Below, piece by piece: positions 5,331 to 59,268 of a stretch of DNA of 64,000 nucleotides. The notes beneath the pieces are model-generated. The model saw only the letters and a program-made list of their open reading frames with translations, was not told the DNA's origin and searched no databases. Source of the DNA: Takakia lepidozioides. Taxonomy: Eukaryota; Plantae; Bryophyta. How positions within the stretch are numbered: position 1 is the stretch's first letter; each line of letters opens with the position of its first letter. The stretch spans positions 58,280,001-58,344,000 of the forward strand of contig CM060732.1 in the NCBI GenBank assembly GCA_030704615.1, read 5' to 3'. Position numbers and translations under genes: made by a program.

Positions 5331-6054
5331 TGTCGCGCACCTCACTTCGGTAAACTCCCCTTCAAGTCATAGTTAACCGCTTTGATGCGCGCGCCTGACT
5401 CCCAACCTGGCCGCCGGGCCAACTTGGAGTTTCGGCTACTCACCGGGACATAACGGTCCCCATTTGCTTCCTCTAAAACCCTCCACCTATTTGGGACTAG
5501 GAGAATTCCCTTTGGTAGATGGCAGTCCGGAACAGCTCCCCACTCTTTGGTCGCTTTCCGGCTCGCACGATTACTCACTAGTTTTTGGTCACCAACGGGC
5601 TTGCACCGTTCTCGGGGTTACTACTCCCTATATATACTTCTGTAGCTGTCCGCGGGGGTTTCATAACCAGCCATGCCATTTTATGGCGAACCACCACGAA
5701 AACCCTCGACTCCCGGTGGTGAGTCGCGGTGAGTCTTGGCCCACTCACCGCGGCCCCAATGGACCATGATGAGTCCCAAGACTCCCCACGACTCCCACCT
5801 CGAGGTCTCCACCCCATGGTGAGTCCTATGCCACCCCCACTAAGTCCCACTACGCTACCACCACCCCTTGTGGAGCCACCTCCACCGCAACCCGGTGTGC
5901 GGGGCTCCACCTAGTGAGCGCCTCCGCCTCCTTGAGTGCCTTGGGCACTCAAGGGTGCTTCAGCCCCCCATACCTATCGTCGCCGCTGCCCCCACCACAG
6001 GGGCAGCCCCTCATGTGTCCCGACCCCCTGCCCTCAAGGCAAAGGGCCGCGACA
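5331..6054 (-). repeat. 5' LTR of the chromovirus
   Basis: Termini TGTCGCG...CGCGACA, adjacent to the PBS; TATATATA at ~5629-5636. Confidence 0.88.
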
Positions 6055-8230
6055 GTAACCCTAATAAGGCCCCGGCCGCACCTGGCCGCTAAGCGGCCTG
6101 CTAAGCTAGGTAGTAGCCGTTAACAGCATGGTGACGGCCGCACTTGCCCGTTACAACCCCAGCTAGTTAGCGGGCTCCTAGCAGCTGTTAAAGTTGACGT
6201 AGGGGTTCCTCCAAAATTTAGCACGTCCCCCCCAGGTGGTAAATCGCGGTCACCGACTAAAAATCGGGCACTCGATCTTGCACGCAACAGAGGTATGCAG
6301 CGTCTCCCCTTCCCTGCGATCTCTCCTTTTCTCCCTCCCTGCCTCTCTTCCCTCTCCATGCCTCCCTCTCTTTCATCATCTCTCAATCCATCTCTTTCTA
6401 TTCTTGTTCTTTCTTGTTTTTTGTTTTTGTTTTTGGTTGTTTGTGTGTTCATGGGGTGGGTGATTGCACAGCAGGGAGCGCGGGGCGGGCACGAGCAAGT
6501 CACTGGCAACCGTAGCTCAGTCAATGCAACTCGGTCGCAATTCAGCGAGTGCCATTCACATAGTGCTTTGTTGTACTCTGCACGGCTCGTCGTGCTTCCC
6601 CTCTCTGAAAAGAGAGTTGCCTTTGGCCTTCCTGCCTTGTTCCTCATCCAGAGCCTGCACCACCGATTGCCAGTCGTTGCCAACGCCCATGTGCGTGCTT
6701 TTGGTGGTTGTGGCCACGATAGTCCACTGGTACTAGAAATTGTTACAGATTGAACATTGTGCAGATGGTTTTTGCACAACATGTAAGAAAATCATCATGA
6801 GATTGTCGAAGTGCTTGCATTCAACTAGCAAGAATTTGGTAACAGGGCTGTGCTTGAAGGCTAGCATCACAGAATATAAAGATATCCAATGTGTAGTAGC
6901 ATTGGATATCATGGTCAGTGAAGATGCAAGACAGGTGTGGTTGTGATGGTAATGCCAGACAAACTATACCAAGGAAAGAACAAGGAAAGTGGCTAATTTC
7001 CTCCTGAAACTCTAACAACTCATGGAACAAGAATGCGCAATAAATAAAGCAATCACCAAGAAATCAGGCGTAATTGTGGCTTGAAATGGAGTTATTTGTG
7101 AAGGTTTAGTGTTCATTATTCAAGGGAGAGAGAGAGAGAGTAATGTAGTGCATTGCCCCTTTTCTAGGTAGAAGGGAGCTAGAATACATACAGGTACTGC
7201 AAATTGTAGTAACTTGGGAGATATCTGGTCAACACCCCTCCTTGCTTCCTTGTTGCCCCACTCTTTTCCTGCTTCCTAGCTTTGAATGTGGTGCTAGAAT
7301 ATGTAATATCATGGACAAACACATCTATTAGAAAAATGTCCTCCAAGTTGACCCTGTTTCTGTTTGTCTTGACCCATTGGATAAGGTCTTCATGTGCTTG
7401 TGTGAGAGAGGTAGGAGGAGGATGAAAAGAAGGATGTGTTTATGATTGTTGAAATTGATATGGAACAGCCTTACTGGCCACATACCAGGTGAGCTTGGGA
7501 AAATAAAGGTAGCTTCTACTTCCGAAATATACTGCCTGTGCATCCTCTATTACTGGCTCATTTGAATGATGAATTAGTGTTGATGAGCTCAATTCAATAC
7601 CCCCTTGGTGACTAGATGTGGGTTCTGTGTTATACAGGAGAAAGAGAATGAATCACGTTATGAGGGAGAAAGTAGAGAGAGGCCGTTGTGACCAGGGTAT
7701 ATTTGTTTGAGAATAAGACACCCTATGAGACCCACTACAGCGTGTTCAAAGTGCTTAGTGCCACCCACCTGATTGAATGGCCATTTCTTAATGCCTGTCT
7801 TATGCTTGTGTCATGCAATTGTGATTCAAGACGCTGGTGAGCCTTGATCTGTCTCACAACAACTTCACCAGCTCTATTCCCCACTCTCTAAAGAGAAGCT
7901 CTCTTCTCTTTCATTTTTGTAAGACCTCTCCCTTTTGTGTGTCTCCTTAAATTTGATGCAGGATGCTCAAGTTGACATCCAGCATAAATCTTTTATTTCG
8001 TACTTGCCTGCGTTTTGTACATGTTGCACATTACACTATGTCACAAGTAGGTTTACTCTGGCAACTCCGTCGTCACTAGACAGAGGGCAATGAGGGAGGT
8101 GACCTGCGAGTATTTCTGTTTGGATGATATATATAGGTTGCTTTTTGGTTGCTAAAACTGCAGGGTTACAGTCCCAAGCAGTTGCCCTTCCTCTGCTCAT
8201 GGGTGAAGGTTCAGTCTCCCGGATAGTACC
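6055..8230. repeat. Segmental duplicate (copy 1) of 22118-24360, including the left part of the PIF/Harbinger element (TIR at 6068)
   Basis: Near-identical to 22118-24360 apart from single-base indels and a short deletion near 8205. The homology resumes at 20242-20282, after the inserted retroelement. Confidence 0.93.
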
Positions 8231-8938
8231 TGTCGTGCGCATACATATCGCTACACAACTACATCGCTGTCCAAAACCACACAACACATGTGCACACCAC
8301 ACACTAGTATACCACTAGTCTACCACTAGTCCAGCCACTAGTCCAACCACTAGGCTACAACTAGTCAGTCACTAGGCTGCCACTACGCTGCCCACTATGG
8401 CAGTCACTAGTCCACACAATGATAAAGAAGAAGAATACAAGCACAAGCTCATGCGAGCTCACAAAGCTGAAGCATAAACTCATGCATATATAACCTCATC
8501 ACTCAAATACAAGTCAAGCCAAGTGCACCCCACGCCATGGGGAATCCACACTACGGCGCCATAGCTAGGCGCGGTGAGGCTCAACTCGAGAAAGATGAGC
8601 CTCCCGCGCTTGCCGTGAAGATAACCACTCCAGGGCCTAAATCTGCCTTGACCCCTGGATTGACACTTGGGCCAATCCCAAATGTCAATATGTAAAAGCT
8701 AGCTATTTCCTAGCTAGTTTCACACTAGTGGTAAAATAACTTGACAGCTGTCGTGCGCATACATATCGCTACACAACTACATCGCTGTCCAAAACCACAC
8801 AACACATGTGCACACCACACACTAGTATACCACTAGTCTACCACTAGTCCAGCCACTAGTCCAACCACTAGGCTACAACTAGTCAGTCACTAGGCTGCCA
8901 CTACGCTGCCCACTATGGCAGTCACTAGTCCACACAAT
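8231..8938. repeat. 3' terminal repeat block A-B-gc-A
   Basis: The two 190-bp A copies look identical by eye, with a 327-bp B copy between them. Junction palindrome GACAGCTGTC at 8743-8752; G-run (AGGGGGG on minus) at 8941-8947. Confidence 0.92.
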
Positions 8939-9196: not shown

Positions 9197-9340
9197 CTAT
9201 CCCAAGCAGTGTGGACACAACCAATCTCCGTCAGGAACCTTCTCAAGAGGTGGTGTCAAGCATCCCATATGCCAACCCCTTGAGCATCGATCACACACCA
9301 GCATGGTGGCTGCCCCTTTGGCAGACCCACAGAGCATGCA
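9197..9340 (-). other. PHD finger (C4HC3)
   Basis: CMLC...MLVCDRCSRGWHMGCLTPPLEKVPDGDWLCPHC matches the canonical PHD consensus. Confidence 0.93.
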
Positions 9341-12331
9341 CCTCAAACCTGCAGGTACCACTGCCAAGTTTGGGTCAACTCTGCCATCGACATTGGGAAG
9401 GTGACATGGCGCACAATTACGCACATGGTCTTTCCAAGTCATGCCATCCCGACCCTCTAAGATCAGGACCCCTGAGGGCAACACCTCTCGAACCCTCAGA
9501 ATAACACGCCCTGCAGTAACATCCAGAGTCGTAGGAGCAGTCTGCTGCAAATAAACATAGTCACCAGGGCTAAACCTCCGAACCCCAGGACGATATCCTC
9601 CACCACGTATAGTGGCATACCTCAACGTATCACGGTGCTGTGCAATGGCAAGGTTCTCAAAAGCCATGGGCATGACTTTCTTGAACAACTCTGCACGCTG
9701 ATCACATGCACGTACCCACACGTCCGGATCGTCAAGGTTAAGGACTTGAGCAGTGTCCCTACGAATGGCTGCAGGCAAATCCGGCTCTCGGCCAAAGAGA
9801 AGGAAATATGGTGAGAAGGAGGCAAGTGATGCTTGTTTGCTGAACCTGTAGCCCATGGCTAACCAAGGAACCTGAAGATCCCAATCTCCTAGGTGTCCCT
9901 TCTGCAAGCCATACTTGCGCAAACCCCTCTTCACCGTCTGAACAACTCTCTCTGCTAAGCCATCGGCCTCAGGATGATCCCGAGAAGTGGTGCGGTGGTC
10001 TATCAAGGCTTTATCACACAAAGCCTGAAACTCCCCCAAGAACTCTCTCCCTTGGTCCGTGAGTACCTCAGCTGGAGCACCAAATCGGCTAAGCACACGA
10101 TCCAAGAATGCATACGCAGCCCCCTCACTAGCCTTGTCAGGCAATGGAACCAACTCAATCCACTTGGAGAAGTGCTCCACCATCACCAACACATATCTGT
10201 GGTGGCGCATAGTCAGTGGCAACGGTCCTGCGAAGTCAAGACTCCACCTGTAGCCCAATCCCATGATAGGTAAAGGATGCAACTGTGGTGTAGGGGCGTT
10301 GAATGAAGCACGCACCCTGTCACACACCATGCACCTAGCCACAAACTGTTGCACCTCTGTATGCATACCACGCCACCAATACTGCCCCTGCAGTAAACTG
10401 TGAGTGCGTCGCACTCCAAAATGCCCCAACTCCTCATGGGCATGCCGCACTAACCGTGCACGCTGTGTGGGGTGAGGCACAATCCTCACCCGACCATCCT
10501 CCCACACTCGAAGTAGGTGTATCCCCTCCCACTTGAACCTCTTGGCTCGTTGCAGGATCCGATCCCTCTCCCTGGCAGTCACAATGGCTGCCGTGTCTCC
10601 CGTGCGGAGGTAGTCCAACACAGCCGAATCCTCATGTATATCTCTGGCACCACCTAGCTCATCACTAGCCTCAGGGTCCTCAGACACTCCGTCTACAGTC
10701 ATCCCTGTTGTAGGTCCAATCTGACCTCCCGATGCCAAGATACACAAAAATGCAGATGCGTGCCATCCCGGCACCATCTCCTCGTCCGTCTCACCATGCC
10801 ACCGAGCTCCAGTGTCATCCTGCTGGCTCATGCATGGATTGCGACTCAATCCATCCGCATCCCGATTGACCAAACCCGGTCGATGCACAACCTGAAAGTC
10901 ATACTCCTGGAGTATAAGTGCCCACCGTGCAAGCTTCCCCGTAAGCTTGTCTGACTCCATCAACCACTTGAGTGGCTGGTGATCCGTGACAAGGGTGAAA
11001 AGATTGCCGTATAGATAGCACCTGAAGTGTGCCACGGCCCACACTGCAGCTAAGCACTCTCCCTCATATGAGCTGTACTTAGCCTCTGCAGCGTTGTTCG
11101 AGCGGCTAGCGTAAGCCACTACGAACTCTCTTCCCTCATCATCCACCTGTGTGAGCACCGCTCCAAGCCCCAGCATGCTCCAATCCGTATGCAGCTGAAA
11201 GGGACGCCCCCTGATAGGTCGTCTCAAGATAGGCGCCGAGGTCAACCTCGCCTTGAGCTCTTGAAAAGCTCGTTCCTGCTCATCTTCCCACTGCCACTCC
11301 TGGTCCACCTTGGTCAGCTTGGTTAGAGCCTTTGCAATGGTACTAAATCCCTTGACAAACCGTCTATAATAGTTTGCCAACCCCATGAAAGCTCGAACTC
11401 GGCTCACATCCGTGGGGCGTGGAATTTGTGCAATGGCCTCTACCTTAGTCTGCTGTACCCCCAATCCTCCAGGATATATCATGTGACCCAGATACTCAAT
11501 CTGGTTGTGGAAAAACTTGCACTTCCCCGGATGCAACTTCAATCCGTGCGCTCTCAAGCGCTCCAATACCACCTGAAGGTGTCTCTCATGCTCCTCCATC
11601 GTAACACTAAAGATGATGATGTCATCTATGTAGCACCGAGCAAAGTCCACCCCTGCTAGAATCCTATCCATGACTCTCTGAAACTCTGCAGGAGCATTCT
11701 TAAGCCCAAATGGTAAGAACCGCCACTGATATAGGCAATCCTTGCCGTGCTCATTGATCCCCCAGAATGCCGTCTTCTGCTTGTCCGCCTCCTTGATTGG
11801 CAACTGGTGATATCCGGATCGTAAATCCAAAGTGCTAAAGGCCTTAGCATGCCCGATGGCATCAAAGATCTCCTCTGGTGTTGGCATGGCATACTTATCG
11901 GACTTGGTCTGACGATTTACAGGCCGGTAATCACCGCACATACGTCTCTCCGTCCAATTGCCATAGACATCCTTCTTGGCTGGCATCACTGTGGCTGAAG
12001 CATACTCTCCACCAGAGAGCTCCACCAAACCTGCCTCCCAGAGATCTTGAGTCCTCATCTGAATCAAAGACCTCTCCATGTCACTGTATCTATAGGGTCT
12101 CCGAAAGATTGGCGTGTCAGTGGCCAACTCAATACGGATCTCTTGACCCTTCAGTGCTCCCAAGTCCTTCAAACTGAAGGCAAAGCAATTCCTGTAAGCC
12201 CTCAGGAACCGCCGTATACGTCGTCTCTCTCCTCCGGTGACAATGGGTCCAATGTCAGGCTCCCAATTGTCCTCCGTAACTACAACCTTAAGTCCAGTGG
12301 GCTTAGAGGTAGAGGACGCGTCCCGTGGTTG
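9197..12331 (-). CDS. pol: reverse transcriptase, RNase H, DDE integrase, PHD finger
   Basis: Uninterrupted frame. RT: LDLRSGYHQ, LPFGLKNAP, YIDD. RNase H: TDWS, EGECLA, TDHQPL, ADGLSR. Integrase: HEELGH..CMVC, LDFAGP, TDQGREF, GLAER. C-terminal C4HC3 PHD. Confidence 0.95.
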   Translation of the reverse strand, partial: QPRDASSTSKPTGLKVVVTEDNWEPDIGPIVTGGERRRIRRFLRAYRNCFAFSLKDLGALKGQEIRIELATDTPIFRRPYRYSDMERSLIQMRTQDLWEAGLVELSGGEYASATVMPAKKDVYGNWTERRMCGDYRPVNRQTKSDKYAMPTPEEIFDAIGHAKAFSTLDLRSGYHQLPIKEADKQKTAFWGINEHGKDCLYQWRFLPFGLKNAPAEFQRVMDRILAGVDFARCYIDDIIIFSVTMEEHERHLQVVLERLRAHGLKLHPGKCKFFHNQIEYLGHMIYPGGLGVQQTKVEAIAQIPRPTDVSRVRAFMGLANYYRRFVKGFSTIAKALTKLTKVDQEWQWEDEQERAFQELKARLTSAPILRRPIRGRPFQLHTDWSMLGLGAVLTQVDDEGREFVVAYASRSNNAAEAKYSSYEGECLAAVWAVAHFRCYLYGNLFTLVTDHQPLKWLMESDKLTGKLARWALILQEYDFQVVHRPGLVNRDADGLSRNPCMSQQDDTGARWHGETDEEMVPGWHASAFLCILASGGQIGPTTGMTVDGVSEDPEASDELGGARDIHEDSAVLDYLRTGDTAAIVTARERDRILQRAKRFKWEGIHLLRVWEDGRVRIVPHPTQRARLVRHAHEELGHFGVRRTHSLLQGQYWWRGMHTEVQQFVARCMVCDRVRASFNAPTPQLHPLPIMGLGYRWSLDFAGPLPLTMRHHRYVLVMVEHFSKWIELVPLPDKASEGAAYAFLDRVLSRFGAPAEVLTDQGREFLGEFQALCDKALIDHRTTSRDHPEADGLAERVVQTVKRGLRKYGLQKGHLGDWDLQVPWLAMGYRFSKQASLASFSPYFLLFGREPDLPAAIRRDTAQVLNLDDPDVWVRACDQRAELFKKVMPMAFENLAIAQHRDTLRYATIRGGGYRPGVRRFSPGDYVYLQQTAPTTLDVTAGRVILRVREVLPSGVLILEGRDGMTWKDHVRNCAPCHLPNVDGRVDPNLAVVPAGLRCMLCGSAKGAATMLVCDRCSRGWHMGCLTPPLEKVPDGDWLCPHCLG

Positions 12332-15300
12332 CTATGCTGCAACCTCTTGAGCAGTACTCCCTACCTGCTCAGTCAATGACAAGGCCTCATCCTGCCCCAT
12401 CATCTCATCCTTGAGGACCTCCTCAACCGAGAAGAATCCCCAACCTCATCCATCACAGCCGCCTTGGCTGCCAACTCCCTCTGAACCTCGAGCACCTCCC
12501 ACGTGTGCCATGGATGCATGCACCCCGTGGTCCTCATATGCTCGCCCCCACTCACTGCCTGTACCGTCTCGGTAGGCAGAGAGACCATTGAGGGAAGTGT
12601 ATTCCGCACTCTGCGTTGCTCAGCTAGAGCCAAGCTGATAATCCAGGTCAAGCAATTGAGATCCATTGCTTGCCCCAACACTTGACGACGTGATGCCTCA
12701 GAAAGAGACGACACCGCCGTGGTACCAGTGGTAAAACCCATTGCCCGCTCACGCTCGTCAGCATTAGGCTCCACTAACTGCTGCAACTGAGCATCCCACA
12801 GGAGGCCAGGTCCACTATCCCGGAAAGCATGCGATCCTGGGAAGCTGAGCAGTGTAGGTAATGCTGCTCGTGGTTGACCCACCTTGTTGACCACTGCCAA
12901 AGGCGAACGGTCATCGTGTCTCACACGTTGAGACTGCCTCCCTGTGTCCAGAATGTTATCCACTGTGAGATGTGCTGGCCGCTGCACCCCATCAAATGCA
13001 CGCTTGAGCAGTGCGGGTGGCATCATGTTAGTCCACCATAGCCGTGGACGATGAGCCCGTGACCCCACTGTAGCTGCATCTAGCAACACTGCTGACCCAA
13101 GCCACGACCGGACTTGATGCACACTGGCCATCACCCTGGCCCGAGAATCGCCCATCAGTGGCACATTCTCCAAGATGTATGCTGGAGATACAGCTTGATG
13201 AAGCTGCAAGTGGCGCAAAACCCGCACCATCTCCCAAAACAGACCCGACCTCGAGTCTCGCAATCCATTGCCATGCCCGGCTGATGAATGCCCTTGGCAG
13301 GGCCAACCTGCCACTACCAGATCAATGGAGCCAACCCGCTCCAAATCCTGCGCCCCCAGCAACGAAATGTCTGCTGGCAAGGCCTGCTGATATCCACGAA
13401 TTGCAGACACCGACAACAACTCAGGGTACCGCTGCACCAACTGAGCAACATGGCGAAGTGAAACGCGTCGTGCAGTCTCATCCCTCTCCACATACAGGTA
13501 ACGCCGAACTCGTACACCTGCCTGTAACACAGCAGCCAATCCGGTGCTGATCCCGCCAAACAAGTCCAGAAGACAAATGCCTTCATCCGGAGACTGCCAC
13601 ACAATAGGTGTGGTGTCCAATGGAGACAATTGAGGTGGTCCTGGTGCAATCCCCACACTCTCCTCCTCTCCTGACGGTACAAAAGCCTCCACCCAGGCTT
13701 GTTGCACCCGTCGATCAGCATCCCGCTGCAAATCCTTGCTCGTGCCCCACAATGGAGTCTGAGCAACCATGGTAGGCAACTCCGCCATACCATACATGTC
13801 ATCCTGCTCTCCCGGAGGTGGTACATCCTCTGAATGAGCATTGCCCTCAAGCAACTCTCTAGGCCAACTCACTGCCGCTGTGAATGCTGCTAGTGTCGGC
13901 ATCTTGCCTCGCTGGGCAACCGCAACTCCTCCTATGAACGTCACAGGGAGCTGCACACGCCGGCCCTCCCCTGACTGCCATGCAGGCCTATAGGAAGCTG
14001 ACTCCTCCCAAAAATCCAGGGTGAAGCCCATGGGGTACAACACTGCCCCACCAACCAGGACATCGTATGAGACTGCGTCTGTCACAATGGCCTTGGCTCG
14101 CATCACTGAGCCATCTGTAGGGTGATCCGGCCGTAGTCTGATAGCCAACTCATGCCGTGTCATGCCCCGAGCCTGCTCCGATCCTCCCAGAGACGTCTGT
14201 ATCTGGAAAGGACAAGGCTCCATATCCGCCTCCGTGAGGCCCAAGCCTGCAATAGCAGCTCTGCCCAGCATCAGTGGCTGAGCTCCCGAGTCCAACAAGA
14301 CTCGCAGTGGCCGGTACCTCTTGCCTGCCGGTCCACTCAAACAGAAAATGCCATCCTGGTTGTCTAACATGACAACTCCAGGTGTCACCATGGCGCGCTC
14401 AATGGCTGGCCTAGCTGGCAGCTCCATCAACCTGGCAGCTGCAGCTTGCCATGGCGCCGCCGTGGCAGTCTTGACCCTCAAATCCGAGGATCCCTCCGGC
14501 ACTACACCTCCCACTATCTCCGCAGAAGATGAAGTAACCTCCCCACTCTCACAGAGTGTAGCTGCCAGCCTGAACACCTCAGCTGGTCTTACCCCCGGCG
14601 TCGCAATCATGGTAGCCGAGAACAATGGAGCCTGGCACACAGATGTGGCCGCTCCTAGCAGCACACTAGCTGCCGTAGCCTTGGCAACACTAGGTAGTGG
14701 TGCTACCCGTGTAGCTCTCCCCAATGGCATAGTGACCTCCGCCTCGGTAACAGTCGGGCGAGAACTAGGTGCCATGGATGGCGTCGACACTGTCTCCGCC
14801 AATGTGAATGACTGAGGAAGCCTAGCCTGACGGCTTGCCTCCCCACGCTGTGGATCCAACTCCACCTCTGCACCTCGTGGCTCAGGAACTCGTGCTGCTC
14901 CTCGAGTCACGGCTGCAGCAGACTCCACCTGCACTAGTGGTAGTGCTGCTCCACACATGAATCCCATGCCTCCCATATCTCCTCCCTCAGGAGCAGGAGG
15001 TGGACCATCCGGCCTTAGAGCCGGTACCACCTGAGCTGTAGCCATGGCAGCGAGCCTCTGCTCTAGCTGCTGAAGCCGGTTGGCCATGCCTTGGTCAACA
15101 CCCTGACCTCCGCGTCCTTGGCCACGTTGAGCTTGCCCTTGGCCTGCACCTCGTGGCTGGCCACCTCGTCCTCTCTGGGCTGCTCCACCTCGCCCCCGGC
15201 CACCATTGTTCCCTTGGAACTGGCCTGGGCGCAACTCAGGATGCAAACTATAACACTGGGCCTCTCCATGCCCGTGCTTGCCACAATGCCCACACTGCAA

Positions 15301-16501
15301 CTGTGCAGGCTGTGCATGTGCCGACCCTTTGCCTCCCTCTGGGCAATCCTTCTTGACATGGGGTCCTCCACATGTCCAGCACACCACATCCGCCCGTTGT
15401 TGGCCAGCAAATGAAGGGAGAGACCCCTGCATTTGAGGTCCTCTCTGCCCTTCCCTGAGCTTCACCTGAGCCCCTTGTTGCCTTGAGCACGTTGAGGTAG
15501 TGGTTGGCTAGGAGCACCACTACCCCGTGGTGTCTCCTTAGCAAATCCCACCATGACCACTCGTTCCTCCACCATGTTGAGCTCTATCCGCTCTGCCAGC
15601 AAAAACACATTTGCTAAGGTGGGTTGGGCCGCTTGTAGGAGAGTTGCATCCCGCACCCTTCTCCTCAGCTCCTTGTCCAATATCCCATACCAGAATTGGA
15701 CTGCCTGAGCTTCCGTAACCCCTTGGGTTACATTTATCAAGCGCCTCATGCGAGTGAAAGCCTCCCTCAAGCTCTCGGTCGGCTTCCGTTGGAACTCTTG
15801 CAAGCTCCGCAACTTCTCTGTCCTCACCCCTTGGTAGTTCCCTCTCAACTCTTCGAAGAACTCCACAACAGGGTTGAAGGCAGGCACGGGTGCTAGTGCT
15901 GGTGCGGTAGTGGCTTGGGTGGACGTCGTAGCTACTGTACCACCAGTCCCACTGCTGCTTGCTGAAGCTGCCGGTGCAGCGGCAGGTGTAGCCACTGCCC
16001 TCGTGGCTCTAGTGCCCCTAGTGATGGAGACATAGTCGGGTGACCAGTACATCCTCCACTCCTCGATCTCAACCTCATGCCCCCGCCTGAACTCATGGTA
16101 ATCATCCATAGGCGCCCCTCAAGGTGCTGAAACAGCCCTTTCCATGCCATGAACGGCGTAAATAGTTGTGGATTGCGCATTTGCTGCAAATCACACCAAC
16201 TATCAAACTCTTGGATAAAATCATCCAACTCAATGGTGCCCACCGCCCCAGAGTACCTTCGTGGCCCCTTGGTAGCTCCATACATCTCCTCCATTGTGTC
16301 CCACAATAATGGCAAAGAAACAACTTGCACCGCCGGTATGAGCCCTCCTGATTCACAATCCGAATCAGAACCTTCCGTGGAAGACACAGGAGGTGAAGGT
16401 GGCCTAAACCGCACACCTCGTCTCGTGTACCCACTAGTATCGCTAGTGCTCGAACCGGCACTGTCCCCAGCAACTAGTGGCACCTCCGTGTTGACACTCA
16501 A
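12332..16501 (-). CDS. gag-protease-C5 DNA methyltransferase ORF; three breaks, each repairable by adding one G to a G-run
   Basis: Gag capsid-like region (15462-16501), knuckles CWTCGGPHVKKDC and CGHCGKHGHGEAQC, protease LLDSGAQ (~14290), DNMT domain. Breaks at ~16116, ~15481 and 12438-12441. Confidence 0.88.
12620..13580 (-). other. C5-cytosine DNA methyltransferase domain (Dcm/DNMT fold)
   Basis: Motifs in canonical order: I LDLFGGISTG, II YVE, III DI, IV GWPCQGHS (catalytic Cys, ~13300), VI YILENV (~13165), VIII AHRPRLWWTN (~13040), IX ERERAMGF, X RRQVLGQAM. Confidence 0.93.
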
Positions 16502-16759
16502 CCGGTCATGAACATGTCCCTAACCCCCTCTCCACAAGGTAACCGGGTAGAGAACCTGTTGCGGCTTATGGTTTGGAATACTAAGTTCCTAACATAGCCT
16601 ACACCTGAACTGCATGATCATGGGAATATCATGAAGATACTCCTCAAACCGCCCTCCACGAGCTTCAAAATTCGGCCTTCCAGACCACATGCCAGTCCTT
16701 AGTCCACCAGTGCCTCCACGAGTCAGCACAGGCCATCCACAGGTCAACACGGGCCACCA

Positions 16760-18380
16760 CAGACCAGCACAGGCCCACACAGCTCACTGGTCACAGCCGT
16801 CACAGTCCCACAGGCCACTGGGCACAGTCTGTCACAGCCCCTCACAGCTCGTCACAGCCTCAAAGGCCTCAGGCACAGCCTGTCACAGCCCCTCACAGCC
16901 CGTCACAGCCCCAAAGGCCTCAGGCGCGGCCTGTCACAGCCCCAAAGGCCATGGGCACGGCCTGTCACAGCCCCTCACAGCCCGTCACAGCCTCAAAGGC
17001 CTCAGGCACGGCCTGTCACAGCCCCTCACAGCCCGTCACAGCCCCAAAGGCCATGGGCACGGCCTGTCACAGCCCCTCACAGCCCGTCACAGCCCCAAAG
17101 GCCATGGGCACGGCCTGTCACAGCCCCTCTCAGCCCGTCACAGCCCCAAAGGCCTCGGGCACGGCCTGTCACAGCCCCTCACAGCCCGTCACAGCCCCAA
17201 AGGCCATGGGCACGGCCTGTCACAGCCCGTCACAGCCCGTCACAGCCCGTCACAGCCGCAAAGGCCTCAGGCACGGCCTGTCACAGCCCCTCACAGCCCA
17301 TCACAGCCCCAAAGGCCATGGGCACAGCCTGTCACAGCCCGTCACAGCCCCACAGGCCTCAGGCACAGCCTGTCACAGCCCCGCACAGCCCGTCACAGCC
17401 CCAAAGGCCACTGGGCACAGCCTGTCACAGCCTGACACAGCCCGTCACAGCCCCACAGGGCACAGGGCACAGCCTGTCACAGCCCATCACAGCCCATCAC
17501 AGCCTCAAAGGCCTCAGGCACGGCCCCTCACAGCCCATCACAGCCCCAAAGGCCATGGGCACAGCCTGTCACAGCCCGTCACAGCCCCAAAAGGCCACTG
17601 GGCACAGCCTGTCACAGCCTGACACAGCCCGTCACAGCCCCACAGGGCACAAGGCACAGCCTGTCACAGCCCATCACAGCCTGTCACAGCTTGCCACAGC
17701 CTGTCACAGCCCGTCACAGCCCGTCACAGCCCGTCACAGCTTGCCACAGCCCCAAAGGCCATGGGCACGGCCTGTCACAGCCCCTCACAGCCCGTCACAG
17801 CCCCAAAGGCCATGGGCACGGCCTGTCACAGCCCGTCACAGACCGTCACAGCCGCAAAGGCCTCAGGCACGGCCTGTCACAGCCCCTCACAGCCCATCAC
17901 AGCCCAAAGGCCATGGGCACAGCCTGTCACAGCCCGTCACAGCCCCACAGGCCTCAGGGCACAGCCTGTCACAGCCCCGCACAGCCCGTCACAGCCCCAA
18001 AGGCCACTGGGCACAGCCTGTCACAGCCTGACACAGCCCGTCACAGCCCCACAGGGCATAGGGCACAGCCTGTCACAGCCCATCACAGCCCATCACAGCC
18101 TCAAAGGCCTCAGGCACGGCCTGTCACAGCCCCTCACAGCCCATCACAGCCCCAAAGGCCATGGGCACAGCCTGTCACAGCCCGTCACAGCCCCAAAAGG
18201 CCACTGGGCACAGCCTGACACAGCCCGTCACAGCCCCACAGGGCACAGGGCACAGCCTGTCACAGCCCATCACAGCCTGTCACAGCTTGCCACAGCCCGT
18301 CACAGCCCGTCACAGCTCGCCACAGCCTGACACAGCCCGTCACAGCCCGTCACAGCTTGCCACAGCCTGTCACAGCCCCA
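16760..18380. repeat. ~1.6-kb minisatellite in the element's 5' leader
   Basis: 10-bp unit (C/T)GTCACAGCC in ~52-55-bp higher-order units punctuated by AAAGGCC-ATGGGCAC/TCAGGCAC. It produces the repetitive ORFs at 16689-18439. Confidence 0.95.
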
Positions 18381-18849
18381 CACATGGCCGCTCTGGCAGT
18401 TTAGCCATTTCTCCAAGGGTTTTAGCCACACCAAGCTAGGGTTTGTGTCTCTTGGACTCTAGGCTTCTTTCCACCGAGCTATGGTGGCTGTGAGGAAATC
18501 AGCAAGGTATCCTTGCTCTTTCGGCTCCCACACACCACCATAGTAGCCCTAAGCCATGAGGTGGTTGCCACAAACCAAGCCTTCTTTCTCACTTAGCCTA
18601 CCCAAACACGCCACTAAACTCAATGGCAAACAACCAAGCCCTGCTGGTTCCCAGCCCTTGTGAGCACTCATTCAAGCACTCTCCTTGGCCATAGCATCTG
18701 TCTTAGAGCTTCTTCCAGCCCCCTACACCTGCTGCTTCAAGAGTTGCGCTCCCTTCAAGCTTGAAGTTGAAACCCCAACTCACATAGGCCCTACAAGTGC
18801 TTTTCTTTCACTCCAAGTGGAAACCAGCCCTAGACCTTCCGTTCTAGCT

Positions 18850-19914: not shown

Positions 19915-20241
19915 TGATAAAGAAGAAGGATACAAGCACAAGCTCATGCGAGCTCACAAAGCTGAAGCATAAACTCATGCATATATAACCTCATCACTCA
20001 AATACAAGTCAAGCCAAGTGCACCCCACGCCATGGGGAATCCACACTACGGCGCCATAGCTAGGCGCGGTGAGGCTCAACTCGAGAAAGATGAGCCTCCC
20101 GCGCTTGCCGTGAAGATAACCACTCCAGGGCCTAAATCTGCCTTGACCCCTGGATTGACACTTGGGCCAATCCCAAATGTCAATATGTAAAAGCTAGCTA
20201 TTTCCTAGCTAGTTTCACACTAGTGGTAAAATAACTTGACA
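19915..20241. repeat. 5' terminal repeat B
   Basis: 327 bp; one mismatch seen against 8420-8746. TATA-like TTATATAT on minus at 19981-19988. Confidence 0.92.
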
Positions 20242-20282: not shown

Positions 20283-22030
20283 CTATCCCAGACCTCAATG
20301 TAGCAGTAACCTGGCTCCTCTCTGACACCTCTGACCTTCATCATTTTTCTCACCTTAGCAGTATCGTCCTACCTACCAACTGCAACAGAGATGTTCGATA
20401 GCAACACATGAGTTCCAGCATCTTGTCCATCCCACTCGAGAAAACATTTTGCCGCACGCTCTGCCACCTCCACATTGCCATGACTCCTGCAGGCACCAAG
20501 CAAGGCCCTCCACACATCCAGTTTGATTGGCATTTTATTGATCAAATCCTCTGCCTCGTCCAATCGCCATGCATGGTCAAGAAGGTCCACCATGCAACCT
20601 ATTTAAATGGCGAATGTATGAATCCCATCCAAATGATTTTTGTTTCTTTTCAAACTTATGAGAGCAGATCCTGGAGTCTTTATAGAGATTCTCTGTACCA
20701 TGCAGAGGCCCTTGGCAAGTAGGACCTGATTCTACATACCCTCAAACAGGTCCATGACAAGTACGGGATCAATCGAACTTCATTAAAATGGCAAATGTAT
20801 GAATCCCAAACAGGTCCATGACAAGTATGGGTGCTGCACTGTTGGAGTCAGGCCATGATCTTGACTCAGGGAATAAAAGAAGTGTCTGCCTTCATCTAGT
20901 AGGCCCCCCATGGCTGCATGCAGAGGGAACACATAAAGGTGAAATTGTTTGGCTTCAAGCCTTCATTTTGTATCCTTTCACATAGTTGTAGGACCTCCCT
21001 ATGACAACCATGCTGGGCATATCATGCGGTCATTGCATTCCATGCACATCTCGTTTAGCCATATTTTCAAACACTCCTTTGCATCATTGATGCTCCCACA
21101 CTTGGTGTACATGTCGATGAGGGTAGTATCAAAGATGATATTTGGCACAATTCCAGCTTTCATGATGTCAGCATGGACCTCTTTGTCCTTTTCCAGAGCT
21201 CCCAGGCTGGCACACACATTGCAAACACACACGAATGTTCACTGGTTGGGGTTCACCCCTTCTTGCATCAGTTGATCATAGGTTTCCAAAGCCTCCATCC
21301 CACACCCATGTTGGGCGTATCCTGTGATCATTGCAGCCCACAATACCACTTTTTGTTCAGCCATATTGTCGAACAGCCCCTCTGCATGCTTGATGCTCCC
21401 GCATTTGGCATACGTATCCACGAGGGTAGTGTCCAAGATGACATTTGGCACATTTCCAGCTTTCATGATGTCAGCATGGACCTCTTTGCCCTTTTCTAGG
21501 GCTCCCAGGCTGGCACATGCATTGCAAACGCAAACCAATGTGATCTGGTTGGGCTTCAACCCTTCCCACAATCGTTTGCTTATAGGTCTCCAAAGCCTCC
21601 ATTCCAAAACCATGCTTGGCATATCTGCAATCATTGCACCATATGTGCAGGCATATTGTCGAACACTCCCTTTGCATCCTTGAGGCTCCCACATTTGGCA
21701 TACATGTCGACAATGGACGTATCCAAGACGATATTTGGCACAATTCCAGCTTTCATGATGTCAACATAGACCTCTTTGCCCTTTTCCAGAGCTCCCAGGC
21801 TGGCACACACATTGTAAATGCAGACGAATGTGACTTGGTTGGGCTTCACCCCATCCTGCATCATTTGCTCACATATCTCCAAAGCCTCCATACCGAACCC
21901 TTGCTGGGCATACCCTGCTATCATTGCACCCCATGAAACCACATTTCGTTCAGCCATATTGTTGAGCACTCCCTTTGCATCCTCGATGCTCCCGCATTTG
22001 GCCTACATGTCATCTAGGGTAGTATCCAAG
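20283..22030 (-). pseudogene. PLS-class PPR-E pseudogene
   Basis: Repeated DMYAKCGS..A..VFDNM...VVSW.AMIAGYAQHG motifs and E-domain MVDLL...VWRALLGACRSHGNVE...VLLSNI; frameshifts and a ~230-bp insertion at 20600-20830. Confidence 0.88.
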
Positions 22031-22130
22031 GTCTCAAGGGTTTCCCTACAATATCACTGTTTCATATACCTTGCCATCAGTATATTCCTCGTATCTTGTT
22101 TCTTGCGCCCCGTTAAAGTAACCCTAATAA

Positions 22131-25100
22131 GGCCCCGGCCGCACCTGGCCGCTAAGCGGCCTGCTAAGCTAGGTAGTAGCCGTTAACAGCATGGTGACGG
22201 CCGCACTTGCCCGTTACAACCCCAGCTAGTTAGCGGGCTCCTAGCAGCTGTTAAAGTTGACGTAGGGGTTCCTCCAAAATTTAGCACGTCCTCCCCCCAG
22301 GTGGTAAATCGCGGTCACCGACTAAAAATTGGGCAGTCGATCTTGCACGCAACAGAGGTATGCAACGTCTCCCCTTCCCTGCGATCTCTCCTTTTCTCCC
22401 TCCCTGCCTCTCTTCCCTCTCCATGCCTCCCTCTCTTTCATCATCTCTCAATCCATCTCTTTCTATTCTTGTTCTTTCTTGTTTTTTGTTTTTGTTTTTG
22501 GTTGTTTGTGTGTTCATGGGGTGGGTGATTGCACAGCAGGGAGCGCGGGGCGGGCACGAGCAAGTCACTGGCAACCGTAGCTCAGTCAATGCAACTCGGT
22601 CGCAATTCAGCGAGTGCCATTCACATAGTGCTTTGTTGTACTCTGCCACGGCTCGTCGTGCTTCCCCTCTCTGAAAAGAGAGTTGCCTTTGGCCTTCCTG
22701 CCTTGTTCCTCATCCAGAGCCTGCACCACCGATTGCCAGTCGTTGCCAACGCCCATGTGCGTGCTTTTGGTGGTTGTGGCCATGATATGTCCACTTGGTA
22801 CTAGAAAATTGTTACAGATTGAACATTGTGCAGATGGTTTTTGCACAACATGTAAGAAAATCATCATGAGATTGTCGAAGTGCTTGCATTCAACTAGCAA
22901 GAATTTGGTAACAGGGCTGTGCTTGAAGGCTAGCATCACAGAATATAAAGATATCCAATGTGTAGTAGCATTGGATATCATGGTCAGTGAAGATGCAAGA
23001 CAGGTGTGGCTGTGATGGTAATGCCAGACAAACTATACCAAGGAAAGAACAAGGAAAGTGGCTAATTTCCTCCTGAAACTCTAACAACTCATGGAACAAG
23101 AATGCGCAATAAATAAAGCAATCACCAAGAAATCAGGCGTAATTGTGGCTTGAAATGGAGTTATTTGTGAAGGTTTAGTGTTCATTATTCAAGGGAGAGA
23201 GAGAGAGAGAGTAATGTAGTGCATTGCCCTTTTCTAGGTAGAAGGGAGCTAGAATACATACAGGTACTGCAAATTGTAGTAACTTGGGAGATATCTGGTC
23301 AACACCCCTCCTTGCTTCCTTGTTGCCCCACTCTTTTCCTGCTTCCTAGCTTTGAATGTGGTGCTAGAATATGTAATATCATGGACAAACACATCTATTA
23401 GAAAAATGTCCTCCAAGTTGACCCTGTTTCTGTTTGTCTTGACCCATTGGGATAAGGTCTTCATGTGCTTGTGTGAGAGAGGTAGGAGGAGGATGAAAAG
23501 AAGGATGTGTTTATGATTGTTGAAATTGATATGGAACAGCCTTACTGGCCACATACCAGGTGAGCTTGGGAAAATAAAGGTAGCTTCTACTTCCGAAATA
23601 TACTGCCTGTGCATCCTCTATTACTGGCTCATTTGAATGATGAATTAGTGTTGATGAGCTCAATTCAATACCCCCTTGGTGACTAGATGTGGGTTCTGTG
23701 TTATACAGGAGAAAGAGAATGAATCACGTTATGAGGAGAAAGTAGAGAGAGGCCGTTGTGACCAGGGGTATATTTGTTTGAGAATAAGACACCCTATGAG
23801 ACCACTACAGCGTGTTCAAAGTGCTTAGTGCCACCCACCTGATTGAATGGCCATTTCTTAATGCCTGTCTTATGCTTGTGTCATGCAATTGTGATTCAAG
23901 ACGCTGGTGAGCCTTGATCTGTCTCACAACAACTTCACCAGCTCTATTCCCCACTCTCTAAAGAGAAGCTCTCTTCTCTTTCATTTTTGTAAGACCTCTC
24001 CCTTTTGTGTGTCTCCTTAAATTTGATGCAGGATGCTCAAGTTGACATCCAGCATAAATCTTTTATTTCGTACTTGCCTGCGTTTTGTACATGTTGCACA
24101 TTACACTATGTCACAAGTAGGTTTACTCTGGCAACTCCGTCGTCACTAGACAGAGGGCAATGAGGGAGGTGACCTGCGAGTATTTCTGTTTGGATGATAT
24201 ATATAGGTTGCTTTTGGTTGCTAAAACTGCAGGGTTTACAGTCCCAAGCAGTTGCCCTTCCTCTGCTCATGGTGAATTTGAGTCTGGCAGGTGGGATGAG
24301 GTTCACGCGGTGATATCACCATTTTGCCCACCCTCATTATCAACAACAGGGCAGTCTCCCGGATAGTACCTACCACGATTCCAGCTTTGACGATGTCAAC
24401 ATGGACCTCTTTGCCGTTTTCTAGAACTGCCAGGCTGGCACAAGCACTGAGAATGCAACTGAGGGTGATCTCATTGGGCGTCACCCCTTCACAAATCATT
24501 TGCTCATAGGTCTCCAAAGCCTCACTACAACACCGTGTATCCTACTATCATTGAAATCCATGAGACAACATTTCGTTCAGTCATATGCCATCAGCCGGGT
24601 GGTCTGATCTGTGAAATGTTGGTGTTGACACGCAGCTGGCCTTCCACCTCCGCATGCTCAATGACCGCCACCTCTTGGAGTAGGAATTGTTCAGTCATTA
24701 CCATCATTCCCAAGCCAGACCTTTTTGTACATGATTCTGAATAGAGTCTATCCCTGCAACCTCTTGCCTCATCAATCACTTTTCCTAGGTTCTTTTGCCA
24801 TGCGAGAATGATGTTGTGTGCCCATCATACAGTCATTAAGGTTAAACTTTGCTTTACATGCCTTGTGACTAGAGACCAGCTTGTACCCCCTTTTCGATGG
24901 AGCAAGAAAGGGGCTTGAAGGGGAAGGCAGACTGGGGAGGAGAAGAACATATTTGGAATAAAACGAATATTCATAACGTCCACGGAAAGCTCAAAGAGCT
25001 TATGAGAAAGAGAAAGCATTAAACAAGAAAAAAATGAGCTCCTGAAGTGACCTGCAGGTACAGTCGAGGAGTTCCAAATTGACGAGCTCCCTCTTCCCTC

Positions 25101-44448: not shown

Positions 44449-46531
44449 TTATATAAAGTGCCTGTTAGGCACATACCCCACCTCCTTCATCTTCCCAGCC
44501 AATCTTCTCAACTCAGCATGGATTTCTTTAATTCTAGGATGCAACTTGTCATCTATAACAAAGGTGTGCACCCTGTTGCCAACCTCCATGCAGCAGCGAC
44601 TTGACTCGTTTTTAACCCCTTTGACCTTCATCATTCTTCTCACCTTTGTAGTATCATCCCACCTGTCAGCTGCAGCATAGATGTTTGAGAGCAACACATA
44701 AGTCGCGGCATCATGTTCAGCCCACATGAGGATAGATGTTGCTGCACGTTCAACCATCTCCATATTGCCATGGATTCTGCAGGCACCAAGCAAGGCCTTC
44801 CACACCACAACACCTGGATTTATGGGCATTTTATTAATCATGTCCACTGCCTCATCCGGTTGTCCCTCACGTCCAAGAAGGTCCACCATGCAGCCAAAGT
44901 GCTTTACTGTCGGAGTGACATCATGATCTTGACTCAGGGAATCAAAGTAGCGTCTTCCTTCATTCAGTAGGCCAGCGTGGCTGCATGCAGAGAGAACACA
45001 TATAAAGGTGATATTGCTCGGCTTCAAGCCGTTCTTTTATATTCCTTCAAATAGTTGCACGACCTCCCTATGACAACCATGTTGTGCATATCCTGCAATC
45101 ATCGCATTCCACGACACCACATCTTGTTCAGCCATATTGTCGAGCACTCCCTTTGCATCCTTCATGCACCCACATTTGGCATACATGTCCACCAGGGCAG
45201 TGTTCAGGATCACATCTGGTACAATTCTAGCTCTGACGATGTCACCATGTACCTCTTCACCCTTTTCCAGGGCTGCCAGGCTTGCACACGCACTGCAAAC
45301 GCACACAAACATGATGTGGTCGGGCTTCACCCCGTTGCACATCATTTGCTCATAGGTCTCCAAAGCCTCAATCCCATGTCCTTGTTGTGCATACCCTACA
45401 AGCATCACACTCCACAACACCACGTCTCGTTCAGCCATAGTGTTGAATACTCCCTTTGCATCCTCGATGCACCCACATTTTGCAAACATGTCCACCAGGG
45501 TCTTGTTCATAATGTCATCTGGTACAATTCCAGCTCTTAACATGTCGCCATGCACCTCTTTCCCCTTTTCCAGAGCTGCCAGGGCAGTGTTTAGATTGAC
45601 ATTTGGTACAATTCCAGCTTTGATGATATCCCCATGCACCTCTTTGCCCTTCTCCAGGGCTTCCAGGCTTGCACAAGCATTACAAATGCGCACAAACATG
45701 ATGTGTTTCCCCCATCATTTGCTCATAGGTCTCCAAAGCCTCCATCCCACGTCCCTGCTGTGCATACCCTGCAAGCATCGTACTCCACGACACCACATGT
45801 CGTTCAGCCGTAGTGTTGAACACTCCCTTTGCATCCTAGATGCACCCACATTTTGCAAACATGTCCACCAGGGTATTGTTCAGAATGACATCGATTTGGT
45901 ACAATTCCAGCTCTGAAGATGTCGCCATTCACCTCAATCTTTCCCCTTTTCTAGAGCTGCCAGGGCAGTGTTTAGAATGACATTTGGTACAATTCCAGCT
46001 TTGACGATATCCCCATGCACTTCTTTGCCCTTCTCTAGGGTTGCCAGGCTTGCACGAAGCCACATCATGTCCAGCCATAGTGTTGAATACTCCCTTTGCA
46101 TCCTAGATGCACCCACATCTTGCAAACATGTCCACTAGGGTATTGTTCATAATGAAATCTGGTACAATTCCTGCTCTGAGATGTCGCCATGGACCTCTTT
46201 CCCTTTTTCCAGAGCTGTCAGGGCTGTGTTCAGAATGACGTTTGGTATAATTCCAACTTTGACGATATCCCCATGCACCTCTTTGCCCTTCTCTAGGGTT
46301 GCCAGGCTTGCACGAAGCCACATCATGTTCAGCCATAGTGTTGAATACTCCCTTTGCATCCTAGATGCACCCACATCTTGCAAACATGTCCACTAGGGTA
46401 TTGTTCAGAATGAAATCTGGTACAATTCCAGCTCTGAGATGTCGCCATGGACCTCTTTCCCTTTTTCCAGAGTTGCCAGGGCTGTGTTCAGAATGACGTT
46501 TGGTATAATTCCAGCTTTGACGATATCCCCA
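44449..46531 (-). pseudogene. PLS-class PPR-E/E+ pseudogene, no DYW domain, 5' end truncated by a CACTA-like terminus
   Basis: ITFICVLSACSHAGL...MVDLLGR...WKALLGACRIHG...YVLLSNIYAAA...HP...MKEVGYVP. Internal ~246-bp duplications at 45900-46530; frameshifts. Confidence 0.9.
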
Positions 46532-46800
46532 TACTACAGGAAAAGGGGGGCCTTTGCGACGCCCAAGCCACGCCGCAATGTCGAGAAAACGTCCTTTTCA
46601 GGCATGCGGCAGGCGCAAAATTTGCAACGCCCGGCTGTCGCCTGACAGTCGCATGGGCATCGCCAAAATGACGTCGCAAAATGCGACATATGGGGGTCGC
46701 GAGCCCCTGCCCCAACTCCCACGACTACCGGACGTCGTTTTTCAGGCCGTCCGCGCCGATGGCAGGGGCTTCCTTCGAGCGACGTCTCGGATGACGAGGA
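46532..46800 (+). mobile_element. CACTA/EnSpm-like terminus
   Basis: TACTACAGGAAAA (one change from the CACTACA start of CACTA TIRs), followed by clustered GCGAC/GTCGC subterminal repeats, exactly where the PPR sequence stops. Confidence 0.62.
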
Positions 46801-58279: not shown

Positions 58280-59268
58280 ATGTCTCAAAATTCAGGATGT
58301 GGAGAAGTTCGGGGTCGAATCGTCGGAATCCTCAGTCCATTTTCATTCGCTTTGTCAGTTCTCGCGCTTCTGAGAAGCGTTTTATGCTATGAGCTTGCCC
58401 AACTAGATTCAGCTCGGAAGTAGCTGAGTGTAGTGCTTTGCTCCCCCCGAACGCTTTACCCTCAGGGTCACTGTATGTTACGCAGGCTGTCTTGCTATAC
58501 AACTAACATAGCTTTCCACAATCAACACCTTATCCCCGTACAAAAGCCCGCATTACTCCCATGAGTAGCTTCACAAGAAAAATGGAACCCAAATTTTCAT
58601 CTGCTTATCTTGTTTCTTCATTCAGGAAGAAATCAAACTAACTTATTTTAAGAACGTGAGCATAATTTGGATGTCGTGTACATATGCCAGACCTGTAAGT
58701 CAATCTTGACAGCAGCAGCACTGAAGATTAAACCATTGCATACTTGAAGTGACCTCACTACAGTGTTGGACTCATTGGGTAGGCTATAGTGCGTGCAGAG
58801 CAGACAAGGCCATGCAACACTGCCAGCCCCTCATCCCCCACATTCCCCGACTGCGTGTTCTCATCCTGCACTCTATCCCCTCTTTTTCTCATATGTAGAT
58901 TGTTGAGAGAAACCTCAATTTAGTCCACTCTGTCCATGGCTACAAGGCAAGGTTTCTCTCTGTATTGTGCTCGTGGGGGTTAGTTGATGTTCTAAAGTGT
59001 CCCTCTTGTTGCCAATCCAGTACACTACACCAGACCCCAAAGACTACTCAGGACCGAAGGAAGGCGGTGGGTGGTTTTGACATCCAAACAAAGCACCGCG
59101 AAATGTTTTCCCGTTCAAAACGGACATTACACTTTACAAGTATGTTTCTTTCGTCTTGTATAGGTCTGGCGTCCACAGCACTGGGGGTAGTTTGTCTAGC
59201 ACTCTCCCTTAGAAAAGAGTTTTCATTTTGGTTGAATGCTGGCATGTGTAGACCTGTACTTCTATCAG

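Follow-up and report, generated by a model that had tools for sequence, protein, structure and literature searches.

We analysed a 64,000-nucleotide stretch of the Takakia lepidozioides genome (contig CM060732.1, positions 58,280,001 to 58,344,000; hereafter the window), whose minus strand carries a Ty3/gypsy-type retrotransposon encoding a DNMT3-like DNA methyltransferase (DNMT). Read 5' to 3', the element comprises an ATG, Gag, two CCHC knuckles, protease, DNMT, a short linker, the nine bases TAG CAA CCA, reverse transcriptase (RT), RNase H, integrase and a PHD finger. The Ty3/gypsy domain order of protease, RT, RNase H and integrase is present, and relatives of the element give Pfam matches to the protease. 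Our subject is the TAG that lies between DNMT and RT, which the original prediction took to be a leaky stop separating Gag, protease and DNMT from the polymerase (pol) domains. We call the open reading frame (ORF) that lies upstream of it ORF1 and the frame downstream of it the pol frame. The features on which the argument depends are the following.

16115..16294, minus strand: N-terminal Gag stretch in a third frame, with its ATG at 16294-16292 (residues 1-60 of the Marchantia protein P0003, 85% identity)
15465..16118, minus strand: Gag (capsid-like) stretch, its frame offset by one base from that of the following stretch (Marchantia P0003 residues 46-257)
12403..15507, minus strand: main open stretch of ORF1 (translation and motif positions)
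15343-15381 and 15253-15294, minus strand: two CCHC knuckles in ORF1 (motif positions)
14281-14298, minus strand: protease motif LLDSGA in ORF1 (motif position)
13546-13560, 13291-13302 and 13159-13170, minus strand: motifs FGGIS, PCQG and ENVP of a DNMT3-like C5 methyltransferase (motif positions)
12335..12445, minus strand: tail of the Gag-protease-DNMT frame, in the pol frame here through one base missing upstream (translation GWGFFSVEEV...EVAA, then stop)
12400..12402, minus strand: TGA closing the DNMT frame in the window copy as sequenced (ORF translation)
12326..12334, minus strand: TAG followed by CAA CCA, predicted type I (stop-CARYYA) readthrough signal (sequence, contigs and relatives)
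9197..12331, minus strand: pol frame downstream of the TAG (1044 open codons, Pfam)
11477-11947, minus strand: RT (RVT_1, 5e-33)
10901-11290, minus strand: RNase H (RT_RNaseH, 1e-35)
9971-10471, minus strand: integrase zinc finger and core (Integrase_H2C2, 2e-16; rve, 2e-13)
9206-9340, minus strand: C-terminal PHD finger (PHD, 2e-10)

Residues 271-1243 of the Marchantia protein P0003 match the frame that follows the capsid-like stretch. The methyltransferase domain was recognized by Pfam as PF00145 (2e-12), and its top 16 matches among solved structures were all DNMT3A (best 2e-9); by these comparisons the C5-DNMT domain appears closest to DNMT3.

Direct reading of the minus strand places the TAG at 12334-12332, CAA at 12331-12329 and CCA at 12328-12326, as had been claimed, and this TAG is the sole stop between the end of the DNMT frame and the frame encoding RT, RNase H, integrase and PHD. 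The pol frame is preceded by a TGA at 12448-12446, is open from 12445 to 12335, meets the TAG, and then runs for 1044 open codons to a stop at 9199-9197. The pol ORF as listed begins at a TTG (12172), so that the TAG does lie 54 codons upstream of it, and the first ATG of the pol frame is found only within the RT region. In the window copy the DNMT frame, which is shifted by one base relative to the pol frame, terminates at the TGA at 12402-12400. Because of this offset, a single extra base anywhere in 12445-12403 takes the DNMT frame to the TAG; the upstream ORF of this copy reaches the TAG only when a base missing at 12426-12428 is counted. Across the 64-kb window TAGCARYYA (R, purine; Y, pyrimidine) matches six times against 3.79 expected, and 18 of 100 shuffled sequences reached six. 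The window-wide count of the motif is therefore not unusual; its position and its conservation exceed chance.

The evidence for conservation comes chiefly from diverged relatives. A scan of metagenome contigs returned 70 loci, among which L001-L053 are true relatives of the element. Matches to both DNMT and pol are carried by 36 of these 53 loci; in 25 of the 36 a single shared stop ends the DNMT ORF and opens an in-frame pol, and in 34 the first stop upstream of pol is a TAG or TAA followed by CAR-YYN. With L011, L017, L039-41 and L050 added, the motif stands at the homologous place in 40 of 53 loci, which together with the window form five clusters at 80% DNA identity, so that comparison strongly supports the proposal that a leaky-stop context divides Gag, protease and DNMT from RT, RNase H, integrase and PHD. 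Tabulation of 39 loci gave 30 TAG, nine TAA and no sense codon. The hexamer following the stop was CAACCC (32 loci), CAATCA (three), CAGTTA (two), CAACCA (one) or CAACCT (one), which is an exact fit to CAR-YYA in 6/39 tabulated loci and CAA CCC or CAA CCT in the other 33.

Thirteen loci do not contribute a clear motif. Six of them stop short of the homologous place (L008, L025, L037, L047, L049 and L051), and seven lack a clear motif there (L019, L024, L026, L030, L044, L046 and L053). Among the latter, L019, L024 and L044 are broken or unresolved at the junction; L026 has two consecutive stops, TAG TAG CCA at 1789-1800, a further TAG apparently standing where the CAA would be; L030 carries a premature stop and a later in-frame TAG CAA CCA near the end of the locus; L046 has a different domain order; and L053 is only 33% identical.

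Grouping by DNA identity, with the window included, gave 32 clusters at 97%, seven at 90% and five at 80%, and an exact TAG-CAR-YYA is found in four of the five clusters at 80%. The residues on either side of the stop vary by clade (VAA-stop-QP, D-stop-QL, D-stop-QS and K-stop-QS), and when nine representatives are aligned, the stop and CAR are an island of identity amid a linker that otherwise diverges. The constraint appears to act on nucleotides rather than on protein, because the second codon after the stop changes its amino acid yet stays YYN. Between the deep clusters synonymous sites are saturated (proportion of synonymous differences, pS, 0.76-0.85) and the proportion of nonsynonymous differences (pN) in pol is 0.15-0.28. 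Within clade II the ratio of nonsynonymous to synonymous rates (dN/dS) is 0.06-0.23, and the pair L032 and L035, both of which retain TAG-CAR-YYA, gives 0.06 in pol and 0.19 in ORF1 at a dS of ~1.2. Saturated pS together with low pN and low dN/dS shows that the relatives evolved apart under purifying selection, as working elements in which the stop and its context were retained. L032 is intact, with 1369 open codons (protease, DNMT), then TAG CAG TTA, then 1047 open codons (RT, RNase H, integrase, PHD); here it can be stated without qualification that an in-frame stop separates an upstream ORF from a long downstream one.

These data bear directly on the view that a dead lineage, spread by means of other elements' proteins or simply decaying, acquired the stop by chance nonsense mutation, with a functionless motif. 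In favour of this view, the window copy is broken at three places, and most metagenome copies of the main cluster hold many stops. Against it, a stop stands at the homologous place across five clusters at the synonymous saturation and clade II dN/dS given above, and L032 is open over both of its long frames save for the TAG. Stops change only into other stops among the tabulated loci, and the chance that CARYYA follows a given stop is ~1/512 with even base use. This deep conservation disfavours the dead-lineage explanation, which we consider very improbable.

Within the family of the window element, which is present in very high copy (6454 contigs of sequencing run X2 aligned to 500 bases), the listed variants all lie outside the nine bases. 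At a threshold of at least 5%, ~57 of the 501 places are variable; 40 of these are listed, all outside 12326-12334 (runs X2, X5, X6 and X11); at a 2% threshold, again no variant was listed in 12326-12334 in X2, X12, X7 and X13, which bear three organism labels. A sense codon at the stop in other copies was looked for and none was found among the variants listed for contigs of six runs. None of the indexed runs listed as containing the sequence is recorded as RNA, although X11 may be.

We then considered where the frame of the window copy is interrupted. The original prediction placed a missing G in the run of four at 12438-12441. Its arithmetic holds, since one extra base suffices to carry DNMT to the TAG, and its site does not: the G4 run is kept, and the missing base lies 11-14 nt further on, at 12426-12428. 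Contigs were compared at the junction at the 5% threshold in X2, X5, X6 and X11 and at the 2% threshold, over 12300-12460, in X2, X12, X7 (a second organism label) and X13 (a third). No insertion or deletion at the G4 run reached 2% of depth in the latter four runs or 5% in the former four, so that G4 is confirmed, yet the motif downstream is conserved across relatives. The two sites, and the depth of contigs with an extra base at 12425-12427, are as follows.

12426..12428, minus strand: site where the window copy lacks one base relative to many family copies (contig depth)
12438..12441, minus strand: G4 run, first proposed as the site of the missing base (no length variant listed)
Extra base at 12425-12427, X2: 92057 of 322294 depth, plus 8131 of 446596 at a second position
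Extra base at 12425-12427, X5: 266.7 of 515.4 depth
Extra base at 12425-12427, X6: 53.1 of 158.6 and 51.2 of 214.2 depth
Extra base at 12425-12427, X11: 24.4 of 24.4 depth
Extra base at 12425-12427, X12: 19.4 of 23.8 depth
Extra base at 12425-12427, X7: 13.4 of 13.4 depth

Copies with the extra base run from DNMT directly into the TAG, their DNMT frame reading SSR-VEEVLKDE...QEVAA up to the stop. The shorter, window-type form at 12426-12428 is likewise common in three studies (X2, X5 and X6).

Aligned to the single 1278-residue ORF of Marchantia polymorpha (P0003), the window copy has three frame changes in Gag-protease-DNMT: one base has been lost around 16120, another in the vicinity of 15471-15510 and a third close to 12427. 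Each loss falls at or next to a run of G: GAGGGGCG near 16120, AAGGGGCT at 15474-15471, and TCGGTT at 12428-12427. On account of these three changes the window copy appears to be defective or mis-assembled; as sequenced it would not make pol by readthrough of the TAG, and it would not serve as a working example. The losses would fit either systematic sequencing error at G runs or real mutations. If all three were assembly errors the real copy would be intact, an explanation to which the common character of the changes, one-base losses at or near G runs, lends some weight. Contigs of X2, X5 and X6, from three studies, hold both forms at 12426-12428, the one site of the three that was compared with reads, and the short form therefore exists in the reads, although X1-X4 may be the source of the assembly. 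We regard assembly error as a possible but doubtful account of the window copy.

The same offsets invite another explanation, in which the window form reaches pol by programmed -1 frameshifting in the 45-nt overlap (12445-12403), or in which the stop region is spliced out. Each ORF is one base behind the preceding one, with overlaps of 42 and 45 nt. The overlap, read in the ORF1 frame, contains no X XXY YYZ slippery heptamer, and a shifted ribosome would meet the TAG anyway. The first two breaks are not likely to be recoding sites, because they fall inside Gag and just ahead of the nucleocapsid knuckles; set against the intact single ORF of Marchantia, they look like lost bases, and intact relatives require no change of frame. 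We therefore rejected programmed -1 frameshifting at both short overlaps, the ORF being continuous in Marchantia and a slippery heptamer lacking.

Splicing has its own apparent support in gene models. P0007, P0012 and P0034, from Marchantia polymorpha and Sphagnum fallax, connect DNMT with RT by leaving out the stop region, which they treat like an intron. The omitted stretches differ among the models, and the in-frame stop itself explains why such models exist; these stop-bridging introns are probably annotation artefacts. Frameshifting and splicing together we judge highly improbable.

Other named proteins agree with a stop at this position. The closest are from liverworts (Calypogeia fissa, 70% identity; Marchantia polymorpha, 65-71%) and Sphagnum, not from Klebsormidium, and on this protein search we rejected identification of the element with KnitGypsy-Dnmt3 of Klebsormidium. 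The ORF1-type proteins P0003, P0004 and P0009 (Marchantia polymorpha), P0002 (Calypogeia fissa), P0005 and P0006 end at the position of the window TAG; the Marchantia and Calypogeia comparison is at the protein level and concerns the shared end position. Among the 23 matches listed to longer proteins, no fused protein exceeded 47% identity.

At lower identity the domains are arranged in other ways. P0031, P0033, P0041, P0058 and P0073 are single ORFs that join DNMT to RT without a stop. Single ORFs in the order RT, RNase H, DNMT, integrase, PHD are represented by P0038, P0039, P0042, P0044 and most of the longer matches, including green-algal proteins; proteins attributed to Scenedesmus and Monoraphidium share this layout, and the order RT, RNase H, DNMT, integrase occurs only in relatives at 37-45% identity. 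The superfamily of gypsy elements with DNMT3 and PHD thus has three layouts (P0038, P0039, P0042, P0044 and P0058-P0079 examined): protease and DNMT, then a stop, then RT; protease, DNMT and RT fused; and RT, RNase H, DNMT, integrase, PHD. In the distant, continuous ORF of P0033, a Y-Q-L aligns with the stop-Q-P of the window, in a poorly conserved linker. The alignment is a hint that a tyrosine codon may have given rise to the stop, or that the stop may be decoded as one.

We think it likely, on the basis of these sequence comparisons, that TAG-CAA-CCA is a conserved in-frame stop that ends the Gag-protease-DNMT3 frame and is read through at low frequency, so that pol would be made only as a fusion. 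Under this proposal the main product would be Gag-protease-DNMT, ending at the TAG. A near-cognate tRNA would decode the TAG, aided by the six bases that follow, and occasional readthrough would yield a fusion extending through RT, RNase H, integrase and PHD. Gag, protease and methyltransferase would then be in excess over RT and integrase, as follows from a leaky TAG placed before pol. The motif has precedent: UAG-CAR-YYA, cited from the outset as the tobamovirus readthrough context, agrees with the type I motif described in PMC3542737, which works by way of the hexamer following the stop and functions with UAA and UGA too. The base directly after the stop, a C, is reported to be the most important in PMC5397192.

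We also looked for a structural component. RNAalifold on nine representatives found no conserved pairs downstream of the stop, and the fold of the single downstream sequence was marginal (z = -1.97; 10 of 200 shuffled sequences folded as well). With no conserved downstream structure, the pseudoknot type of signal used by gammaretroviruses is disfavoured.

Several observations weigh against readthrough at this stop. The DNMT frame of the window ends at 12400 and never reaches the TAG, and in X2, X5 and X6 the window-type short form accounts for roughly half of the spanning depth or more. Logan contigs, from which the within-family comparisons were made, lose rare variants; in the 5% comparison 17 of the variable places are absent from the listing, and in the 2% comparison 33 bases separate the TAG from the end of the aligned stretch, where the variant at 12324 of the 5% comparison is not listed. 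In the largest cluster of relatives the stop is followed by CAA CCC or CCT, without the final A of the consensus, and most of its copies are decayed, with many stops, so that the TAG-to-TAA changes there may be neutral. The same cluster has an ATG two codons past the stop, which would permit re-initiation.

This last point, and the general one that an in-frame stop is no proof of readthrough, belong to an alternative in which pol expression does not depend on ORF1, proceeding instead by re-initiation, internal initiation or a subgenomic transcript, and the stop is a plain terminator. Tca2 of Candida albicans is reported as such a case: according to PMC2194720, it has an in-frame UGA, yet pol expression from the isolated junction proved mostly independent of the translation of gag. 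The ATG of the largest cluster is not conserved, however, its place being taken by CGG GAC in the window, GTG TTG in L003 and GAG GCC GTG in L032. Independent expression has no need of a shared frame, yet all 25 loci with an unbroken DNMT have an in-frame pol and one shared stop, and it leaves the conservation of CAR-YY across five deep clusters unexplained. We therefore consider independent expression of pol unlikely, and continue to favour readthrough.

Outside the coding region the element is bounded by nested direct repeats, arranged as A B [coding] B A.

8420..8746 and 19915..20241, no strand assigned: copies of inner direct repeat B (327 bp, 99.7% identity, TG...CA ends)
6054..8217 and 22117..24285, no strand assigned: copies of outer direct repeat A (2.2 kb, 98.9% identity)

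Neither a matching 5-bp duplication nor an adjoining TGG-type primer site was found in the flanks of the repeat B pair. One string of ~21 nt occurs after both A1 and B1 on the plus strand. The nine bases TAGCAACCA occur on the minus strand at 8146-8154 and 24215-24223, once in each copy of outer repeat A; with six motif matches in the window against 3.8 expected, these are probably due to chance. A long array of tandem repeats of ~51 bp (80-88% alike) occupies 16758-18384, in the leader between repeat B and the start of Gag. Satellite arrays of ~258-303 bp lie between repeats B and A at 20831-22030 and again 23 kb away at 44899-46532 (77-92% alike). A further pair of direct repeats, at 51040-52485 and 56838-58283 (1.45 kb, 99.2% identity, 5.8 kb apart), probably represents the long terminal repeats (LTRs) of another element.

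Comparison with known systems clarifies what is familiar in this arrangement. As in the tobamovirus type I signal (Skuzeski 1991, cited in PMC3542737), the UAG of the window is followed by CAA CCA, which fits CAR-YYA. The tobamovirus signal is linear and does not depend on RNA structure downstream; that of the element is likewise linear, with no conserved downstream structure found, and the TAA that some relatives have before the same hexamer fits the activity on UAA reported in PMC3542737. Unlike the tobamoviruses, the host of the signal is predicted from its sequence to be a nuclear LTR retrotransposon of a bryophyte-like genome rather than an RNA virus, and where the consensus reads YYA the largest cluster of relatives carries CCC or CCT. 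Gammaretroviruses such as murine leukaemia virus (MuLV; type III) resemble the element in having a single in-frame UAG between structural and polymerase parts, with a fixed low ratio of fusion to short protein predicted. MuLV requires a spacer and pseudoknot, as stated in PMC3542737, whereas the element has no conserved pairs; and the MuLV protease lies downstream of the stop, going by the title of Yoshinaka 1985, whereas protease and DNMT lie upstream here.

Among retrotransposons the nearest known counterparts are KnitGypsy-Dnmt3 and the streptophyte Gypsy-DNMT3 elements (de Mendoza 2018, PMC5890265), which are also Ty3/gypsy elements with a DNMT3-like methyltransferase. Gypsy elements with DNMT3 are known from Klebsormidium nitens (PMC5890265), and streptophyte Gypsy-DNMT3 is named in bioRxiv 10.64898/2026.05.21.726589. 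KnitGypsy-Dnmt3 shares the A B ... B A repeats, which a figure legend of PMC5890265 calls DIRS-like. The DNMT differs in position, being placed within the Pol polyprotein ORF in PMC5890265, and here between protease and RT, before a conserved stop. SIRE1 of soybean, like the element, belongs to the plant LTR retrotransposons, and an in-frame stop divides two of its ORFs, as described in PMC2194720; it differs in being Ty1/copia, the stop that is suppressed lying between pol and an env(-like) ORF. Tca2 has an in-frame stop between gag and pol, according to the same source, and differs in its stop codon, a UGA accompanied by a possible pseudoknot, and in that pol expression was found to be mostly independent of gag translation, which makes it a warning case rather than a model.

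PMC5890265 contains neither the word readthrough nor the word frameshift, and its sole mention of a stop codon concerns mutated Symbiodinium copies. No published description of readthrough in DNMT-carrying or bryophyte gypsy elements was found, in a search outside which lay the supplements of PMC5890265, which may show ORF maps. DNMT3-carrying gypsy elements and CARYYA readthrough are each known already, and their combination with DNMT upstream of the stop was not found in print. What appears to be new here, judged from sequence, is the position of DNMT between protease and RT together with a conserved stop after DNMT.

Retroelements fix the ratio of structural to enzymatic proteins through recoding, and most descriptions of plant LTR retrotransposons present them as single-ORF or frameshifting elements (PMC5009743, PMC6317226). 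We lean slightly towards a wider interpretation, in which a DNMT3-gypsy clade in bryophyte-type genomes put DNMT and protease upstream of a tobamovirus-type leaky stop, dosing DNMT like Gag and keeping RT and integrase ~ten-fold lower. This arrangement would be the first gag-pol recoding by a linear CARYYA signal in a plant retrotransposon, and would have arisen from single-ORF ancestors that persist in distant relatives. An in-frame stop would also account for the invented introns of the Marchantia and Sphagnum gene models. If readthrough is correct, the family provides a comparative and testable case of in-frame readthrough by a purely linear signal, in elements that also bear an epigenetic enzyme. 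Whether the methyltransferase would be produced in bulk, with Gag, or sparingly, with integrase, is set by where the stop lies. The layouts that exist side by side, with DNMT before the stop, fused before RT, or between RNase H and integrase, may constitute a natural experiment with which to ask why a transposon should carry a DNMT.

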